DNA of 64,000 nucleotides from Candidatus Gastranaerophilales bacterium (lineage in GTDB: Bacteria; Cyanobacteriota; Vampirovibrionia; Gastranaerophilales; Gastranaerophilaceae). Below the pieces are notes generated by a model. It saw only the letters and a program-made list of their open reading frames with translations, searched no databases and was not told where the DNA came from. Position numbers and translations under genes: made by a program. Location of the stretch: assembly GCA_947588785.1 (NCBI GenBank), contig CANPZN010000002.1:2123-66122 (forward strand), read 5' to 3'. Positions 46,688 through 53,080 of this stretch are shown piece by piece. Each line of letters opens with the position of its first letter. Position 1 is the first letter of the stretch.

Positions 46688-48037
46688 ATGTTAGATCAAT
46701 CACGTGAAAAATCAATAGAGTATGTAAAAAAACAGGCATTTGATATAATTAATTCCACACAGCTTTATTCATATAAAGGTACAGTATCTAAATTATTGGG
46801 GTTAACGGTAGAGGTAAAACTGCCGGGATTAAAAATAGGTGATTTATGTTTTATTGAAACTGCGGAAGGTGAGAGAAAACCTGCTGAAGTCGTTGCATTT
46901 AAAGGTGAAAGTGCTCAATTATTATTATTATATGACGGGGCGGGAATTGGTCAAGGCAGTTTGGTTCAATCTACAGGACAGGCTATAAGAATTCCGATGG
47001 GAGATTTTTTGTTAGGAAGATTAATAAGTCCGTTAGGTGAACCTATTGACGGAAAACCTATGGATATACGAGGATGTAAATATGTTAATATTGATAATCC
47101 CCCTCCGGGTGCTTTTGACAGACCGATTATTAAGACTATGTTTTCAACGGGTGTGCGTGCTATAGATTCTATGCTTACTTTGGGTGCCGGACAACGTATG
47201 GGACTATTTGCAGGCTCCGGTGTCGGGAAAAGTACTATGCTTGGTATGATTGCTAGAAATTCTGATGCTGATATTAATGTTGTTGCACTTATTGGTGAAC
47301 GAGGAAGAGAAGTAAAAGAATTTGTTGAAAATTCTTTGGGTGAAAAAGGTATGAGTAAATCTGTTCTTGTTTGTTCAACGGGTGATCAACCACCTTTGAT
47401 AAGACAAAAATGTCTAATGGCTGCTACTGCGGTTTGTGAATATTTTAGAGATCAAGGAAAAAAAGTATTTTTGATGACTGATACTGTTACAAGATGTGCT
47501 ATGGCAGGCAGAGAAGTTGGACTTTCTATCGGAGAACCTCCTACTATCAAAGGTTATCCGCCTTCTATTTTCTCTTGGCTTCAGAAAATTCTTGAACGAA
47601 GCGGTAATAGTCCTAAAGGTTCTATTACTGCTCTTTATACTGTTTTGATGGAAGGTGATGATATTAATGATCCTGTTGTTGATACTGTAAGAGGTATTGT
47701 TGATGGACATATTTTCCTTTCAAGAAAAGTTGCGGAAATGAATCATTATCCTGCTATTGATGTTCTTGGCAGCATTAGCCGTTTATTTACGGAAATTGTT
47801 ACGGAAGAACATAAGCAAGCTGCTTATAAAATGAGAAAAATTATGTCTTTATATCGTGAAAATAAGGACTTAATTGATGTAGGTATGTATAATGCCGGTT
47901 CAAATCCAAAACTTGATGCAGCTATTGAGCTAATGCCTCAAATTAATGCATTTTTACAACAAAAAACTTCTGATAGTGTTACTATGGAATCAACAATTTC
48001 TACTTTAATTTCTATGATGAAAGATGTTGATATTTAA
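46688..48037 (+). CDS. fliI: Flagellum-specific ATPase FliI
   Basis: Walker A GSGVGKST, Walker B VFLMTD, F1-ATPase-like fold motifs. Confidence 0.95.
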   Translation: MLDQSREKSIEYVKKQAFDIINSTQLYSYKGTVSKLLGLTVEVKLPGLKIGDLCFIETAEGERKPAEVVAFKGESAQLLLLYDGAGIGQGSLVQSTGQAIRIPMGDFLLGRLISPLGEPIDGKPMDIRGCKYVNIDNPPPGAFDRPIIKTMFSTGVRAIDSMLTLGAGQRMGLFAGSGVGKSTMLGMIARNSDADINVVALIGERGREVKEFVENSLGEKGMSKSVLVCSTGDQPPLIRQKCLMAATAVCEYFRDQGKKVFLMTDTVTRCAMAGREVGLSIGEPPTIKGYPPSIFSWLQKILERSGNSPKGSITALYTVLMEGDDINDPVVDTVRGIVDGHIFLSRKVAEMNHYPAIDVLGSISRLFTEIVTEEHKQAAYKMRKIMSLYRENKDLIDVGMYNAGSNPKLDAAIELMPQINAFLQQKTSDSVTMESTISTLISMMKDVDI

Positions 48038-48066
48038 ATTTCTTATTGCAAATATTTTTTACAATT

Positions 48067-49039
48067 TTATAACTCTAACTTTTTACTTAAAAATGGAACT
48101 ATTATATCCCAAGCTTCAGAAGATGGATGTGAATTATCTTCAATCCAATATTTATCTTCTTTGTTTAGATTAGGGAGTTCTTTATTAATATCTATAAAAA
48201 TTATATCGTTATTTTCTTTTTTTAAATTATTAATTTCATTATTATATATATTTTCTTGATCTAATGGGCAAGGATAATATAAAATTACCATTTTTGCATT
48301 TGGAAAATTATTTTTTATTTCTTTATAAGATTCAGAAATTAATTTTGTTAAAAGATTATTTCTTATTTTTTGATTTTCGGCAGATTTTTTTGCTATAAAT
48401 TCTTCAATAACTATGGATGTAAAAAATGAATGAATAAAAGGAAATAATAATTTATCTTGTATTAATTCGTTATTTTTGATTTTATATCTTAATGTATGAT
48501 CACCTGTCATAACCCAGTTTCTATATCTGAATAATCTTGGAATGTGATCCGGAATCATTGTAAATATTATATATTCTGCATTCTTTGGCAGTTCATTTAA
48601 AATCTCTTTATCTTTTAATTGGTAATACATAAATGGAATTCCTGTTCCGGATCTTCCTCTGTTTATTACAGTTCTGTTTGTATAATCAGATAATTTTTTT
48701 GAAAAAGTTTCATTTCTGTTTAATCCAAATCCATATGTGTAGGAACAACCAAAAAGTATTATCGGTTTTTTATTTGTTTTTTTATATTCTATGGGTCTAA
48801 AGTCAGAAGTTAAATTTTGTTTATCTGGTGTTGTAACTTTTGCGTACCCTATAAATGGAGATGGTTTTTTATTTATACCCCCCCCCCATTGTATTTTTTG
48901 AAATATTTTTATAATTAATTATATCTTCTTTGTATTTAAAACATAATGAGAGATATGATGCAAATTCTATTATGATTAGAATTAAAACTATTGCTGTTAT
49001 ATTGATTATTATTAATTTAATTTGTTTATGATTATTCAT
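48067..49039 (-). pseudogene. Membrane-anchored SGNH/GDSL-like hydrolase paralogue, frame-shifted at a C10 tract (candidate phase-variable gene)
   Basis: An ATG at 49039 (ATGA overlap with the upstream stop) gives MNNHKQIKLIIINITAIVLILIIIEF..NTMGGGYK*. The frame of the 48067-48630 ORF is open up to 48918 and encodes RPIEYKKTNKKPIILFGCSYTYG, homologous to the neighbour. The total of 973 nt is not a multiple of 3. Confidence 0.65.
48878..48887. repeat. C10 (G10 on the coding strand) homopolymer
   Basis: Counted directly: ...tttata CCCCCCCCCC attgta... No comparably long G/C run was noticed elsewhere in this AT-rich window. Confidence 0.9.
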
Positions 49040-49989
49040 TTATTTGTATTCAATTCCAGTTTTTTTGATATCTCGGGAACTAAAATATCCCAGGCTTGTG
49101 TTGAGGGATGTCCATCAAACATCCAATATTTATTTTCTTTTAATTGAGGACATAATTCTAAAGAATCAAGTATTATTATGTCTTTATTTTTTTCTTTTAC
49201 TTTTTTTAAATCATTGATATTAAATTTCCCATCATCTTCTCTAGAATCAAAAATATCATACATGTATAAAATCACAAATTTGGAATTCGGAAATTTTGTT
49301 TTAATGATTTTATAAATTTCTTCAATATATTTATAAAATAAATTATAAGTTTTTTTTGTATCATGTATTTGTATTAAATAAATATAGTTTTCAAGCAATG
49401 CTTTTATGTAGAAATAATTAAAAATAGAAAAAATATTTTTATTAGAATCAATAAATTCTAATTTGTTATTATGTAATTTATATCTTGTTATATAGAAATA
49501 GGATAATTCACAATTTCTAAATCTAAAAGATCTCTCAATATGATCAGGAATAAATGTATATATAAAATATTCCGTATCTGAAGGAAATCTGTTTAATATT
49601 TCATCATCAGTTAATTGTCTATATATTTCCCCGAGTCCTTCGCCGCAAATACCTCGATTTATTACTGTTTTATTCGTATAATTTGCAAGTTTGTATGAAA
49701 ATGTTTCATTATCTTTTAATCTGTTTCCGTGTGTAAAAGAATCACCTAAAAGAATAATAGGTTTTTTCTGAGAACTGCGATATTCTATAGGTCTCATTTC
49801 TCCTTCAAATTCTTCTTTTCCCGGAACGTAACAGCTTTTATGATTTAAATAATATTTAATTTTATTTATTTTAACTTCATTTTCAAATAAATTAATATTT
49901 TTATTAAATGCAATAAGAAAAGACACCCATTCCAGTACCATTATAAGTATTAGCATTATTAAAATATTTATTAATATTATTTTTTTCAT
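49036..49989 (-). CDS. Membrane-anchored SGNH/GDSL-like hydrolase
   Basis: N-terminal TM, block I ILLGDSFTHG, block V-like DGHPS. Paralogue of the downstream gene. Confidence 0.62.
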   Translation of the reverse strand: MKKIILINILIMLILIMVLEWVSFLIAFNKNINLFENEVKINKIKYYLNHKSCYVPGKEEFEGEMRPIEYRSSQKKPIILLGDSFTHGNRLKDNETFSYKLANYTNKTVINRGICGEGLGEIYRQLTDDEILNRFPSDTEYFIYTFIPDHIERSFRFRNCELSYFYITRYKLHNNKLEFIDSNKNIFSIFNYFYIKALLENYIYLIQIHDTKKTYNLFYKYIEEIYKIIKTKFPNSKFVILYMYDIFDSREDDGKFNINDLKKVKEKNKDIIILDSLELCPQLKENKYWMFDGHPSTQAWDILVPEISKKLELNTNK

Positions 49990-49990
49990 A

Positions 49991-50842
49991 TTAATTAATC
50001 ATTTCTTCGAGTGCGGCAATTTTCATTTTTAATGGATCAGGTTTTTTACCCGTCCATATTTCAAATGCTTTGGCTCCTTGATAAATTAACATATCAAGCC
50101 CTTGAATAGTTTGTATATTATGCTTTTTTGCAAGTTTAATTAATTCTGTTTTTAAGGGATTGTATACTATATCATATATAATTCCGTTTTTATTCATTGT
50201 CTTTATAATTTTTTCTTCAACAGGAGAAACACCCATTGCTTTACCTCTCATACCTATAGGTGTTGTATTTACAAGCATTTTATACTCTGATAAATCTTTT
50301 AAACTTTCTATTTGCTTACAATTATATTTTATATTCGGAAAGTTTCTTTGCAGAACTTCTGTCATATCACCGGCATTTATAACATTTCTTACATATATAT
50401 CTATACTTTGTACATTTAATATTGAAAAACCTACGGATACAGCTCGTGCAGCTCCGCCTCCGCCTATAATTGCAACTTTATTTGCACTCAATTCTTTCCT
50501 GAAATTTTCCGGAATCGCTTCTACAAATCCGTATATATCTGTGTTATATCCTTGCAATGATGAATCTTCCATTATTTTTATAGTATTAGCACTTCCTGCA
50601 ACATTTGCGGCATTATCTACTCCTGATAAAAATAATGTTATTGGAACTTTTAACGGAATTGTTACATTAAAACCTTGATATTTATTTGATTTTAAATACT
50701 TTAATCTTGAAACAATATCTTCTTGGGGTGTTTCTAATATATCATATGTTCCTTCCATTCCTAATGATTTGAAGGCTGCTTCGTGTATTACTTTTGATAA
50801 TGAATGTGAAAGGGGATATCCTATTAATCCAAATTTATACAT
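49991..50842 (-). CDS. aroE: Shikimate dehydrogenase
   Basis: SLSKVIHEAAF...NVTIPLK...NTDIYG...GGGGAARA. Confidence 0.9.
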   Translation of the reverse strand: MYKFGLIGYPLSHSLSKVIHEAAFKSLGMEGTYDILETPQEDIVSRLKYLKSNKYQGFNVTIPLKVPITLFLSGVDNAANVAGSANTIKIMEDSSLQGYNTDIYGFVEAIPENFRKELSANKVAIIGGGGAARAVSVGFSILNVQSIDIYVRNVINAGDMTEVLQRNFPNIKYNCKQIESLKDLSEYKMLVNTTPIGMRGKAMGVSPVEEKIIKTMNKNGIIYDIVYNPLKTELIKLAKKHNIQTIQGLDMLIYQGAKAFEIWTGKKPDPLKMKIAALEEMIN

Positions 50843-50845
50843 ATT

Positions 50846-53080
50846 TTATTCTTCCATTTCTTTTGAAAAAGTACAATTTTTATTGAAGCATACTAATTTT
50901 TTTTCTTTTTTAGTTATTTTTTTTACTAATATATTTCCGCACAACGGGCATTTTTCATTTACGGGTTCATTCCAAGAAACAAAATCGCAATCCGGATATT
51001 TATTACATCCATAAAATATTTTATTGTATTTCGATTTCCTTAATATAATTTCACCATCTTTACATTTTGGACATTTTACACCGGTAGATTTGATGATTCT
51101 TTTTCTATGCTTACATTCCTCATTAGTACATTCCAAATAAGGTCCGTATGGCCCGTTTTTTTGTATCATTGGTGATTGACATTTTTCGCATTTTTCATTA
51201 GTTTCTTTGGTTTGTTCTATTACCTCTCCATTATTATTTAATGGTAACATTGTTTTACATTCCGGATATTTTGAACATCCTAAAAACTGTGTTCCGAATC
51301 TGCTTGTTCTGACTACCATTTTACTTCCGCAGTTGGGGCATATTATGTCGGATTCTATTAATACTTTTTCCATATTCTTTTTTGCGTCTGCAACTGTTTC
51401 AATGAATGGATTATAAAATTCTTTAATGACTTCATTCCATTTTAATTTATTTTCAGCAATGTCATCTAATTTATTTTCCATATTGGCAGTAAATTCATAG
51501 TTCATTATATCTTTAAAATGATCAACTAATTGCTTGCATAGAGTTGAACCCAATGAAGTAGGTGCCAGTGCTTTTTCTATTTTTTCAACATAATTTTTTT
51601 GCTGAATTTTAGAAATAATCGGTGCATATGTACTTGGTCTTCCTATACCATGTTCTTCAAGTGCTTTAACTAATGAAGCTTCGGTATACCTTGGAGGCGG
51701 ACTTGTAAAATGTTGTTTTGGAATAATTTCTTTTAATTTTAAATTGTCACCTTCTTTTAAATCCGGAATTTTTAATGTTTTTTCTTCTTCATCATTATCA
51801 TTGTATATTTTTAAATAACCGTCAAATATTATTTTACTTATGCCTGATTTAAACAGACAATCATCAGCTGTTATATCAATTGTTGTATTTTGAACGGTAG
51901 CATTTTCCATTTGTGACGCTACAAATTTACTCCAAATTAATTTGTATAGTTGGTATTGTTCATTTGTAAGGTATTGTTTTATGCTTTCAGGAGTTTTTTC
52001 TATATATGATGGTCTTATTGCTTCATGAGCGTCTTGTACGTTTTTTGATTTTTTTACATAATTATTAGGTGTTTTTGGATAATAATTTTCTCCGTAATTT
52101 TTTGTTATAAATTCTTTGGCAGCTGTTTGTGCATCATCGGATATCCTGACTGAGTCAGTTCTCATATATGTGATTAAACCAACCGGCCCATCTGATCCGA
52201 TTTCAATTCCTTCATATAACTTTTGAGCTATCTGCATTGTTTTTGATACGCCATAACCCAATTTATTACTTGCTTCTCTTTGTAATGTTGATGTTATAAA
52301 CGGAGCAGTAGGTTTCCTTGTTGAATTTCTGTTTGAAATTTTTGATACAATATATTTTCGAGATTTTTCTTTTAAATATTCCGCTATTTTATTTGCTTCT
52401 GTTTCATTTTTTATATCAATTTTTTCATTTTTATATTTTGATAATTCTGCACTAAATTTTGTTTTATCCTTTAAAAGATCAGCGGAAATTGTCCAATATT
52501 CAACGGGAGTAAATGCTTTGATTTCTTCTTCTCGTTCACATATCATTCGCAGTGCTACACTTTGTACTCTTCCTGCGGAAAGATGATAATTTCTCATTTT
52601 TTCCCATAATACCGGACTTATTTTATAGCCTACCAGTCTATCCAAAATTTGTCTTGTTTGTTGAGCTTTTACTCTGTTCATATCTATTTGTCTGGAATGC
52701 TCAACTGCATAAGTTACTGCTTTTGGGGTAATTTCATTAAATTCTATTCTGAATACTTTGTCATCTGCTACATTAATAACCTGTCTTACATGCCAGGCGA
52801 TTGCTTCTCCTTCACGGTCAGGATCGGATGCCAGATATACTTTATCTGCCTTTTGTGCCATATCATTAAGTTTTTTTACTACTGCTTTTTTTTCGGGAAT
52901 AATTTCAAATGTCGGTGTAAAATCATTTTGAACATCAAATCCCAGAACTTTGGGCGGAAAATCTCTTATATGACCATAACTGGCTTCAATATCATATGAT
53001 GGGCCCAATATTTTTTTTATCGTTTTTGATTTCGCAGGTGATTCAACTATTACCAGTATTTGTTCTTTTTTCTTTGCCAT
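50846..53080 (-). CDS. topA: DNA topoisomerase I
   Basis: Toprim (VIVESPAKSKTI, DPDREGE), active-site region ITYMRTDS, C-terminal Cys4 zinc ribbons. Confidence 0.96.
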   Translation of the reverse strand: MAKKKEQILVIVESPAKSKTIKKILGPSYDIEASYGHIRDFPPKVLGFDVQNDFTPTFEIIPEKKAVVKKLNDMAQKADKVYLASDPDREGEAIAWHVRQVINVADDKVFRIEFNEITPKAVTYAVEHSRQIDMNRVKAQQTRQILDRLVGYKISPVLWEKMRNYHLSAGRVQSVALRMICEREEEIKAFTPVEYWTISADLLKDKTKFSAELSKYKNEKIDIKNETEANKIAEYLKEKSRKYIVSKISNRNSTRKPTAPFITSTLQREASNKLGYGVSKTMQIAQKLYEGIEIGSDGPVGLITYMRTDSVRISDDAQTAAKEFITKNYGENYYPKTPNNYVKKSKNVQDAHEAIRPSYIEKTPESIKQYLTNEQYQLYKLIWSKFVASQMENATVQNTTIDITADDCLFKSGISKIIFDGYLKIYNDNDEEEKTLKIPDLKEGDNLKLKEIIPKQHFTSPPPRYTEASLVKALEEHGIGRPSTYAPIISKIQQKNYVEKIEKALAPTSLGSTLCKQLVDHFKDIMNYEFTANMENKLDDIAENKLKWNEVIKEFYNPFIETVADAKKNMEKVLIESDIICPNCGSKMVVRTSRFGTQFLGCSKYPECKTMLPLNNNGEVIEQTKETNEKCEKCQSPMIQKNGPYGPYLECTNEECKHRKRIIKSTGVKCPKCKDGEIILRKSKYNKIFYGCNKYPDCDFVSWNEPVNEKCPLCGNILVKKITKKEKKLVCFNKNCTFSKEMEE

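Follow-up and report, generated by a model that had tools for sequence, protein, structure and literature searches.

The window analysed here, a stretch of 64,000 nucleotides from an uncultured gut bacterium of the Gastranaerophilales (Melainabacteria), carries two related genes, sgnh1 and sgnh2, arranged head-to-tail on the minus strand. The upstream paralogue sgnh1 (49036..49989) is intact and encodes 317 aa, carrying GDS in block I and D-G-H in block V. Its stop codon overlaps the start codon of sgnh2 (48067..49039, minus strand, 973 nt including the stop) in an ATGA at 49036..49039 on the same strand, which suggests translational coupling of the pair. The two products share 44% identity over 269 aa (BLASTP 3e-69). 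Upstream on the same strand lie aroE (49991-50842) and, beyond it, topA (50846-53080). Intergenic gaps along this stretch measure 1-3 nt; topA, aroE and the sgnh pair are probably one transcription unit. A promoter and terminator scan was uninformative, promoter-like sites being fewer than in shuffled sequences. On the plus strand, fliI (46688..48037), encoding a flagellar/T3SS ATPase, converges on sgnh2 across a gap of 29 nt, a relationship of adjacency only. The initial annotation had the pair abutting the flagellar block; it does adjoin fliI, with which it converges, but it is not part of the block and is encoded on the other strand, following topA and aroE.

A +1 frameshift at a homopolymer of ten G (C10 on the plus strand; 48878..48887, minus strand), covering codons 51-54 (M-G-G-G), splits sgnh2. 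Translation of this G10 allele ends after 56 residues and yields an OFF-state product that consists of the membrane anchor only (48869..49039, minus strand; MNNHKQ...NTMGGGYK, then stop). The frame with the SGNH catalytic domain (48067..48918, minus strand) is open from 48918 to 48070, with its stop codon at 48069-48067, and encodes ...RPIEYKKTNKKPIILFGCSYTYG.... A profile HMM matches one frame over its positions 3-45 and the other over 46-312. The first ATG, GTG or TTG of the catalytic frame is codon M136, so no product bearing the catalytic Ser can start separately in the OFF state. With G8 or G11 translation stops after 54-55 residues, and the two frames join at G9 (323 aa) or G12 (324 aa). 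The tract encodes five inserted residues in the linker that joins the anchor helix to the catalytic domain. No other G/C homopolymer longer than 5 is found in the 64-kb window (29.6% GC), where Gly is least often encoded by GGG (8.5%) and the remaining GGG/PPP tripeptides use mixed codons. The initial annotation had described a C10 tract splitting the downstream copy, conspicuous in an AT-rich genome, with the gene intact at 9 or 12 G; all its coordinates, including the frames, the ATGA overlap and the 973 nt, hold, as do the tract's prominence and both intact lengths. A search of the 973 nt for a second disabling lesion found none besides the tract frameshift. Exact look-ups of the sgnh1, 56-aa ORF, FliI and P0002 proteins of the window gave no match, and the sole close relative returned by a database search with sgnh1 was its own record.

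The sgnh2 protein is predicted to adopt a three-layer α/β/α SGNH fold (AF2 model with pLDDT 94 and pTM 0.90), with the lowest-confidence block at residues 51-60 (pLDDT 67), the tract linker. A Foldseek search with this model gave 52 PDB matches at E<=1e-3, and the best 50 of the 52 are dominated by SGNH-type esterases. Probabilities of 1.0 were obtained to SGNH esterases, TesA, CE2 enzymes, sialate O-acetylesterase and the OatA C-terminal domain. In block I, which reads G-C-S and lines up with the GDS of 4rsh, Ser99 (codon at 48742..48744, minus strand) is the predicted nucleophile and is invariant in 38 homologues. Block V, D301-N-S-H304 (DxxH; 48127..48138, minus strand), is nearly invariant at its Asp and His, each conserved in at least 90% of these homologues. 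An invariant N126 stands in an NRG context resembling block II. The sequence alignment places I-P-D-H165 where block III is expected, with an invariant His and no conserved Asn. A single hydrophobic segment spans residues 4-27 (Kyte-Doolittle 2.88, 19-residue window). The reading of the pair as tandem SGNH paralogues is thus borne out by sequence identity, model, Foldseek matches and the lone N-terminal anchor. The GCS motif, which had been singled out as a peculiarity of the downstream copy, turns out to be the family norm, with Cys in at least 90% of the 38 homologues; the GDS of sgnh1 is therefore the exception.

Despite its fold, the sgnh2 protein belongs to no curated sequence family. It misses the Pfam gathering score (PF13472/PF00657; 24.4 and 21.4 vs 32.9 bits), a sequence-only PDB search returned just marginal SGNH matches (E 0.3-2.5), and the precomputed Pfam entry is '-' for nearly all homologues. 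No Pfam match to an AT3 (Acyl_transf_3) domain was found in sgnh2, nor is any acyltransferase among the enriched neighbours of the family. Among curated models, NCBIfam NF047474 alone covers the catalytic domain from end to end (residues 71-311 of sgnh1 against 82-325 of the 326 profile positions).

A second allele is present on a contig of the same species (ENA contig L001, ERZ27249059; 99% nucleotide identity), which has nine G and a continuous ORF of 323 aa. The comparison is between two assemblies, with the G9 contig at about 2.4x coverage, and either tract length may include a homopolymer miscall. Eight SNPs separate the two sgnh2 alleles, seven synonymous and one non-synonymous (pN/pS 0.034), and seven of the eight, six of them synonymous, are located downstream of the frameshift. 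Selection across the split gene is thus purifying. Scanning JGI metagenome contigs for the tract flanks with a variable gap gave 0 matches.

The Gastranaerophilales gene family to which sgnh2 belongs is unannotated and large (635 representatives at E<=1e-30, clustered at 50% identity), with several paralogues per genome that are frequently in tandem. G/C runs were counted in 688 kb made up of the window and 90 related loci, and since these loci were collected through family genes, other tract-bearing genes of the same genomes are under-sampled. The numbers of runs fall from 865 of length 4 to 116 of length 5, 9 of length 6 and 0 of lengths 7 and 8, followed by 7 of length 9, 7 of length 10 and 1 of length 11. 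The 15 runs of at least 9 compare with 0.08 expected under an i.i.d. model. Fourteen of them fall inside ORFs of the family, and such ORFs account for 15.5% of the sequence (binomial 6e-11). One long run, in L081, lies outside the family ORFs. The tracts occupy about 8 positions on the profile (0, 45, 67, 72, ~75, 140, 186 and 277), are encoded as poly-G (GGG) or poly-C (PPP), and reside in genes that mostly share 23-40% identity. Of the 14 tract-bearing family genes, nine keep the reading frame and five have lost it; in each of the five, a tract change of +/-1 alone gives a full-length match (profile 1/3/7-312).

The tracts also differ between close relatives. Two orthologues at 94% aa identity carry C9 (L033, ON) and C10 (L044, OFF), a comparison of two alleles. 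The pure G9 of one gene (L005) is replaced by GGA GGC GGG at the same place in two others (L063 and L110) at ~97% nucleotide identity. The aroE-sgnh-|fliI synteny recurs in related genomes, and in three species the aroE|fliI slot holds a tract-bearing member, the tract lying at a different position in each. Comparing tract length across MAGs, which the initial annotation had put forward, gave G9 in the second same-species assembly and both ON and OFF orthologues in the family. About 100 of the 114 family genes examined are without a tract, those of the most abundantly sampled species included. Some PPP/GGG motifs of family members use mixed codons, so part of the pattern could reflect pre-existing Pro/Gly motifs, not selection for mutability.

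Several apparent cases were set aside. The 271-aa and 307-aa forms of the P0038 cluster are not ON and OFF states, as the DNA is intact in both, there is no tract, and the difference is a start choice by the gene caller. 'LGGV' in P0087 (GGT GGG GTG) and 'YPPPE' in P0081 (CCT CCA CCT) contain no homopolymer. An origin of the tracts as poly-G artefacts of two-colour sequencing was ruled out because they are 9-11 nt long, gene-internal, bordered by homologous coding flanks, mostly in frame and found in independent samples.

Among 122 flanking genes of the family, no glycan, flagellin-modification or acyltransferase partner was enriched. The neighbours are housekeeping genes (ValRS, iPGM, NanE, Hsp70, radical SAM, aroE and fliI), and the flagellar role first entertained for the pair, at odds with such assorted company elsewhere, is therefore dropped.

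One alternative account of the G10 allele would be a sequencing or assembly error in a gene that is really intact at G9. Homopolymers of 9-10 are error-prone, MAGs are consensus sequences, and the sole other assembly of the species does have nine G; that assembly is, however, the one with the lower coverage (cov 2.4). Five of the 14 tract-bearing genes, from independent MAGs, are out of frame by exactly one slip each, which makes uniform miscalls unlikely, and even the intact G9 allele would be a gene of the contingency type. We therefore regard an erroneous extra G as unlikely. A lower probability still is assigned to sgnh2 being a plain pseudogene, a dispensable duplicate that acquired a frameshift by chance in a G run. 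Redundancy is conceivable for one of two tandem paralogues, and in a related species (L002/L004) the single orthologue has an in-frame TGA. Against such decay stand the lack of a second lesion in 973 nt, the pN/pS of 0.034 relative to the intact allele, with the SNPs past the frameshift mostly synonymous, and the recurrence of the same tract pattern across the family. The tract itself is improbable as an accident, being three of the rarest Gly codons in succession inserted in a linker. This reading is hardly probable at all.

Recoding offers a further alternative, in which RNA-polymerase slippage or ribosomal frameshifting would produce a constant mixture of anchor peptide and full-length protein from any allele. 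Transcriptional slippage is known to occur on long homopolymers, and such a mechanism would fit both the confinement of the tracts to 9-11 nt and the persistence of in-frame and out-of-frame alleles. Known bacterial cases, however, occur mostly on A/T runs, alleles and orthologues here differ in tract length in the DNA itself, and the surroundings of the tracts, at about 8 positions, showed neither a stimulatory RNA structure nor a conserved slippery context. Recoding could add leakiness without replacing a DNA switch; as the explanation itself it is very improbable.

We consider it probable that sgnh2 is a slipped-strand phase-variable gene, seen here in its OFF state, whose product is a membrane-anchored SGNH esterase or acyl-transferase facing the periplasm. 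Its earlier designation as a candidate contingency gene gains support from the intact G9 allele, the purifying selection on the split gene and the family-wide tracts of 9-11 nt. In this model, the product would comprise one N-terminal transmembrane helix and a helical stalk (residues 1-50), followed by a catalytic domain (about residues 60-323; Ser99, Asp301, His304) that would face the periplasm or cell envelope. The G tract would sit in a flexible, insertion-tolerant linker, where 9 or 12 G would allow the whole protein to be made and 10 G would impose the early stop. Slipped-strand mispairing at replication would add or remove one G, an event expected at high frequency, and with frequent slippage a population would always contain both ON and OFF cells. 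Members of the family would have gained tracts repeatedly at differing sites, so that one cell could vary several such enzymes independently. The product would most likely add or remove acyl or acetyl groups on an envelope (or host) glycan and thereby alter recognition by phage or host. The tract, its reading frames, the G9/G10 allele pair, the pattern across the family and the fold are shown here, and hypermutability in vivo, topology, enzymatic activity and this biological role are what we infer for sgnh2. The recurrent G/C tracts of 9-11 bases suggest that a Campylobacter-style random on/off switch may operate in this phylum. The mechanism is a classical one, but neither this gene family nor this phylum had been linked to it before.

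A broader reading is about as likely as not. Gut-associated (rabbit and other) Gastranaerophilales might carry a multi-gene SGNH 'phasome', in which paralogues are switched independently by their own poly-G/C tracts, giving combinatorial acylation of envelope or host glycans and bet-hedging against phages or host immunity. If true, the cyanobacterial phylum would gain its first simple-repeat phase-variation system, a phasome that could be followed directly in metagenomic reads, the organism being uncultured. Repeat-driven phase variation is documented mainly in cultured pathogens and in few commensals. Its known distribution is perhaps database-biased, and mapping across phylogeny has been called for in a 2025 review (PMC11868660). 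Full-text literature searches found no paper linking Gastranaerophilales or Melainabacteria to phase variation. The tract signature is now seen in uncultured, non-photosynthetic cyanobacterial relatives from animal guts, where it points to fluctuating selection on a family that has no annotation. Mixtures of tract lengths, if sought in existing metagenome reads, would provide a simple, testable read-out. The signature also matters for annotation, in which such genes are called fragments or pseudogenes (P0002, P0112 and P0162 are examples).

Comparison with known systems places both the protein and its switch. The sgnh2 product resembles the SGNH/GDSL superfamily (TesA, CE2, CE3, sialate O-acetylesterases and the OatA C-terminal domain) in its fold (target-normalised TM-scores of 0.6-0.74), its block I Gly-x-Ser, its block V DxxH and a putative, NxG-like block II. 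It differs in its low identity (10-15%), in GCS instead of GDS, in the invariant His165 (I-P-D-H) where GxND of block III is expected, in an extra helical insertion (residues ~200-245) and in the N-terminal membrane anchor. Length and architecture are similar in NF047474, the LA_2486 family SGNH/GDSL-type esterase, a hypothetical family of Leptospira. Scores of 17-33 bits against a cut-off of 300 make it a remote relative of which the sgnh pair are not members.

For the switch, the closest parallel is the Campylobacter jejuni/coli 'phasome' of capsule, lipooligosaccharide and flagellar-glycan genes, likewise found in an AT-rich gut bacterium with in-ORF G/C tracts of 8-11 nt (PMC6321876). Campylobacter poly-G/C tracts of at least 8 are experimentally phase variable, and at least 7-8 is the threshold for a hypermutable tract (PMC6321876), which the in-ORF G10 tract of sgnh2 passes. 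Shared features also include envelope-modifying enzymes (a presumed role for sgnh2), tracts above chance, ON and OFF genomes, and paralogous families with tracts at differing positions (PMC6321876). Unlike the Campylobacter system, the proposed one belongs to uncultured, Cyanobacteriota-related Melainabacteria, involves a membrane-anchored SGNH-like family without Pfam assignment and has tracts so far nearly confined to that one family. A possible GDSL domain in the poly-G autotransporters of Campylobacter is not used as support here, as the paper examined for it makes no mention of one. In Haemophilus influenzae, the lipooligosaccharide O-acetyltransferase gene oafA contains a tetranucleotide repeat and encodes a multi-pass AT3 acyltransferase domain fused to an SGNH domain. 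It would share with sgnh2 the repeat-driven ON/OFF control of an acyl- or acetyl-modifying envelope enzyme, and switching of this type affects recognition by antibody or phage (PMC11868660). In contrast to oafA, sgnh2 lacks an AT3 domain and has just one anchor helix, so its product may be an esterase and not a transferase.

The tandem paralogues sgnh1 (49989-49036) and sgnh2 (49039-48067) are the last genes in a minus-strand series of dprA, topA (53080-50846), aroE (50842-49991), sgnh1 and sgnh2, in which neighbours are spaced by 1-3 nt or overlap. At 49036-49039, an ATGA joins the sgnh1 TGA to the sgnh2 ATG, and 29 nt separate the end of this unit from the convergent fliI (46688-48037, plus strand). 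The order topA-aroE-sgnh/fliI-flhA is kept in related loci. The head-to-tail copies share 44% identity (3e-69), in keeping with their initial annotation as paralogues. The 2-kb block carrying them (48001-50000) is clearly AT-richer, at 22.6% G+C against 29.6% for the window and 26-34% in its remainder. The GC skew also flips sign there because the coding strand switches.

The N-terminus of sgnh2, MNNHKQIKLIIINITAIVLILIIIEF..., leads into ATG GGG GGG GGG TAT AAA TAA. This G10 tract (48887-48878, coding strand) brings a stop after 56 codons, while the catalytic part lies in a second frame, open from 48918 to 48070. Loss of one G yields a single ORF of 323 aa, and gain of two G one of 324 aa, so the earlier description of a split gene restored by 9 or 12 G holds. 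The earliest ATG, GTG or TTG of the downstream frame is Met136, beyond the predicted nucleophile Ser99; as read, the G10 allele therefore cannot yield an active domain. A slipped-strand change of ±1 would toggle sgnh2 between the full-length (ON) and the 56-codon (OFF) product. The window contains no other G or C run longer than 5. Compared with every other homologue in the family alignment, the encoded M-G-G-G(-I) inserts five residues; among the window's Gly codons, GGG is the least used (8.5%). The other Gly-Gly-Gly (five) and Pro-Pro-Pro (three) stretches in its long ORFs all use mixed codons.

A second assembly of the species (L001, ERZ27249059, coverage 2.4) matches the window at 99% identity across the full 1,150-nt overlap and carries G9, encoding exactly the predicted 323-aa protein (P0001). 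The strain comparison called for initially thus returned two tract lengths. Within the gene, eight SNPs separate the alleles, seven synonymous and one non-synonymous (P246S; pN/pS = 0.034), and seven of the eight map 3′ of the frameshift. Purifying selection has therefore acted on the "broken" frame from the divergence of the two strains onward, which counts against an old pseudogene; that sgnh2 is no more than a pseudogene is accordingly most improbable. The species is seldom sampled, its sequences coming from a single NCBI contig (67,550 bp; P0002, P0310) and a single 1,164-bp ENA contig.

To place the tract in context, a family profile HMM was searched against six-frame translations of 90 related loci and the window (688 kb, ~114 family genes), and every G/C run was listed. 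Run lengths are bimodal: 865 of length 4, 116 of 5, 9 of 6, none of 7 or 8, then 7 of 9, 7 of 10 and 1 of 11. Fifteen runs reach at least 9, against 0.08 expected under an i.i.d. model. Fourteen of them lie inside family ORFs, which make up 15.5% of the sequence (binomial 6e-11, or 4e-7 counting 9 of 10 independent sites). Nine of these 14 genes are in frame, with G9 in L001 and L005, C9 in L031, L033, L038 and L064, and C10 in L039, L054 and L071 (codons 7-10). The five out of frame are those of the window (G10), L020 (G11), L044 and L058 (both C10) and L062 (C9), and each of the five returns to a full-length family protein by a ±1 tract change alone.

The tract-bearing genes share 23-40% pairwise identity, three orthologue groups excepted, and their tracts fall at profile positions 0, 45, 67, 72, ~75, 140, 186 and 277. 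Position 140, directly before the beta-strand with I-P-D-H, is a hotspot. The orthologues L033 (C9, ON) and L044 (C10, OFF) are 94% identical in amino acids. The L005 tract is pure (AAC GGG GGG GGG TGT), whereas the L063/L110 version (AAC GGA GGC GGG TGT, ~97% nucleotide identity) is interrupted and, from its sequence, non-slippery; L031/L038 read TAC CCC CCC CCA against TAC CCT CCA CCT in the related P0081. At least one MAG (Lapin-004__bin83) holds two tract-bearing paralogues, L005 and L039, and the aroE/fliI slot harbors tract-bearing members in three species (window, L005, L064), each with a different tract position. Tandem arrays are a family tendency, as in the window and L064; in L031 (2091-4981) and L038 (1-2591), three members stand in direct tandem with a C9 tract solely in the last.

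Bimodal run lengths, near-confinement to one family and many independent positions are standard elements of the comparative signature by which slipped-strand contingency loci are recognised. The presence of both ON and OFF genes, every OFF gene one slip away, belongs to this signature, as do the synonymous pure and interrupted versions and the G9/G10 pair under purifying selection. On these grounds sgnh2, initially proposed as a candidate contingency gene, is regarded as probably phase-variable and caught in its OFF state. Some doubt attaches to this because the tract lengths are read from two assemblies, one of the two alleles coming from a 2.4x contig. A homopolymer miscall at the tract is unlikely, and would alter the state of the locus, not its nature. 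Slippage during transcription or translation that recodes the gene constitutively is a very unlikely alternative.

Pfam matches to Lipase_GDSL_2 fall below threshold (24.4 and 21.4 bits vs 32.9), and NCBIfam gives a remote match over the full domain to the uncharacterised LA_2486 SGNH family. An AlphaFold2 model from 38 homologues (pLDDT 94, pTM 0.90) predicts that a long helix at the N-terminus (2-35) is followed by another (37-50), by a loop of low confidence coded by the tract (51-60) and by an alpha/beta domain. Foldseek matches it in the PDB to SGNH hydrolases (probability 1.0), including TesA, GDSL esterases, CE2 and acetyl-xylan esterases, sialate O-acetylesterases and the OatA C-terminal domain, consistent with the SGNH assignment made at the outset. 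The family alignment shows G97, S99, G103, N126 and H165 to be invariant, with conservation of at least 90% at C98, D301 and H304. Block I of the family thus reads G-C-S, and the initial view of GCS as an oddity of the downstream copy is reversed, the GDS of sgnh1 being the exception. At the expected block III (GxND) position, family alignment A2 has I-P-D-H (columns of P0001 residues 161-165), with His165 invariant and no conserved Asn, which may represent a variant oxyanion-hole arrangement. Both paralogues have a single strong hydrophobic segment, N-terminal and preceded by Lys residues (Kyte-Doolittle hydropathy 2.88, 19-residue window), suggesting a signal anchor of N-in, C-out topology that places the enzyme on the extracytoplasmic side. 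Family members, all ~300-335 aa with one common architecture, number 635 representatives at E<=1e-30 and 1923 at E<=1e-10 (clusters at 50% identity), almost none with a Pfam assignment or name.

The 122 genes flanking family members (ValRS, iPGM, NanE, Hsp70, radical-SAM enzymes, aroE, fliI and similar) give no clue to a functional partner. The flagellar adjacency is conserved yet convergent, and the flagellar or glycan role floated initially finds no support in these neighbours. Given the fold, the extracytoplasmic anchor and the usual work of phase-variable genes, the protein would most likely hydrolyse or transfer acetyl or acyl groups of host glycans or of an envelope polymer (LPS, peptidoglycan or capsule). 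Pfam search and hydropathy reveal no AT3 or MBOAT partner domain, which favours a predicted esterase over a transferase.

The fifteenth tract (L081 3730-3739, JAAGKN010000289.1) is a C10, which reads as G10 on the strand of a TupA-like ATP-grasp gene (PF14305) whose ATG it precedes by 62 nt; this gene is oriented divergently from a member of the SGNH family. G11 would link an upstream ATG (MINRMFSALGGGG...) in frame with the ATP-grasp gene, a configuration that may mark a second type of contingency gene in these genomes. PF14305 is linked to polysaccharide modification. The single aroE-adjacent orthologue of L002 (4001-4942) and L004 (GCA_910583875.1, 'Vampirovibrio sp.' MGBC124931) has an in-frame TGA (..KFVV*YYECP.., with Leu or Ile there in relatives), past which no further stop interrupts the frame before the usual C-terminus; its truncated 243-aa product (P0031) occurs in 5 contigs from 3 sources, and the TGA would either make the gene a nonsense pseudogene or act as a site of read-through. 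At the P0038 cluster locus beside feoB (L091-L109), from the most abundantly sampled species, no G/C tract occurs, family copy number varies among assemblies (three in L092, two in L095, one plus a 3′ remnant in L091), and a LysE gene is present or absent. In the P0016 cluster, P0055 has 312 aa and twenty members 298 aa, most called 14 residues shorter. An A-rich run must encode the N-terminus of P0055 (MNNKKK...), and the protein lengths would fit a frameshift in an A tract or a difference in the called start codon.

The nearest loci among GTDB species representatives belong to Candidatus Gastranaerophilales, Melainabacteria or 'Vampirovibrio' MAGs, many from rabbit ('Lapin') gut metagenomes (best match 58% identity). 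Contigs L017, L030, L058 and L061, with the Gastranaerophilales-type family, are recorded as 'uncultured Muribaculaceae', probably through mis-binning or mislabelling of MAGs. In full-text searches, no paper ties Gastranaerophilales, Melainabacteria or Vampirovibrionia to phase variation, contingency loci, slipped-strand mispairing or poly-G; nor does phase variation come up in a 2026 preprint on gut Gastranaerophilales, and no paper joins SGNH, phase-variable and homopolymeric. The mechanism is classical, and the gene family and phylum are new for it. In Campylobacter, poly-G/C tracts of at least 7 serve as the cut-off and those of at least 8 are experimentally phase variable (PMC6321876). 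The family tracts described here, read from sequence, span 9-11.
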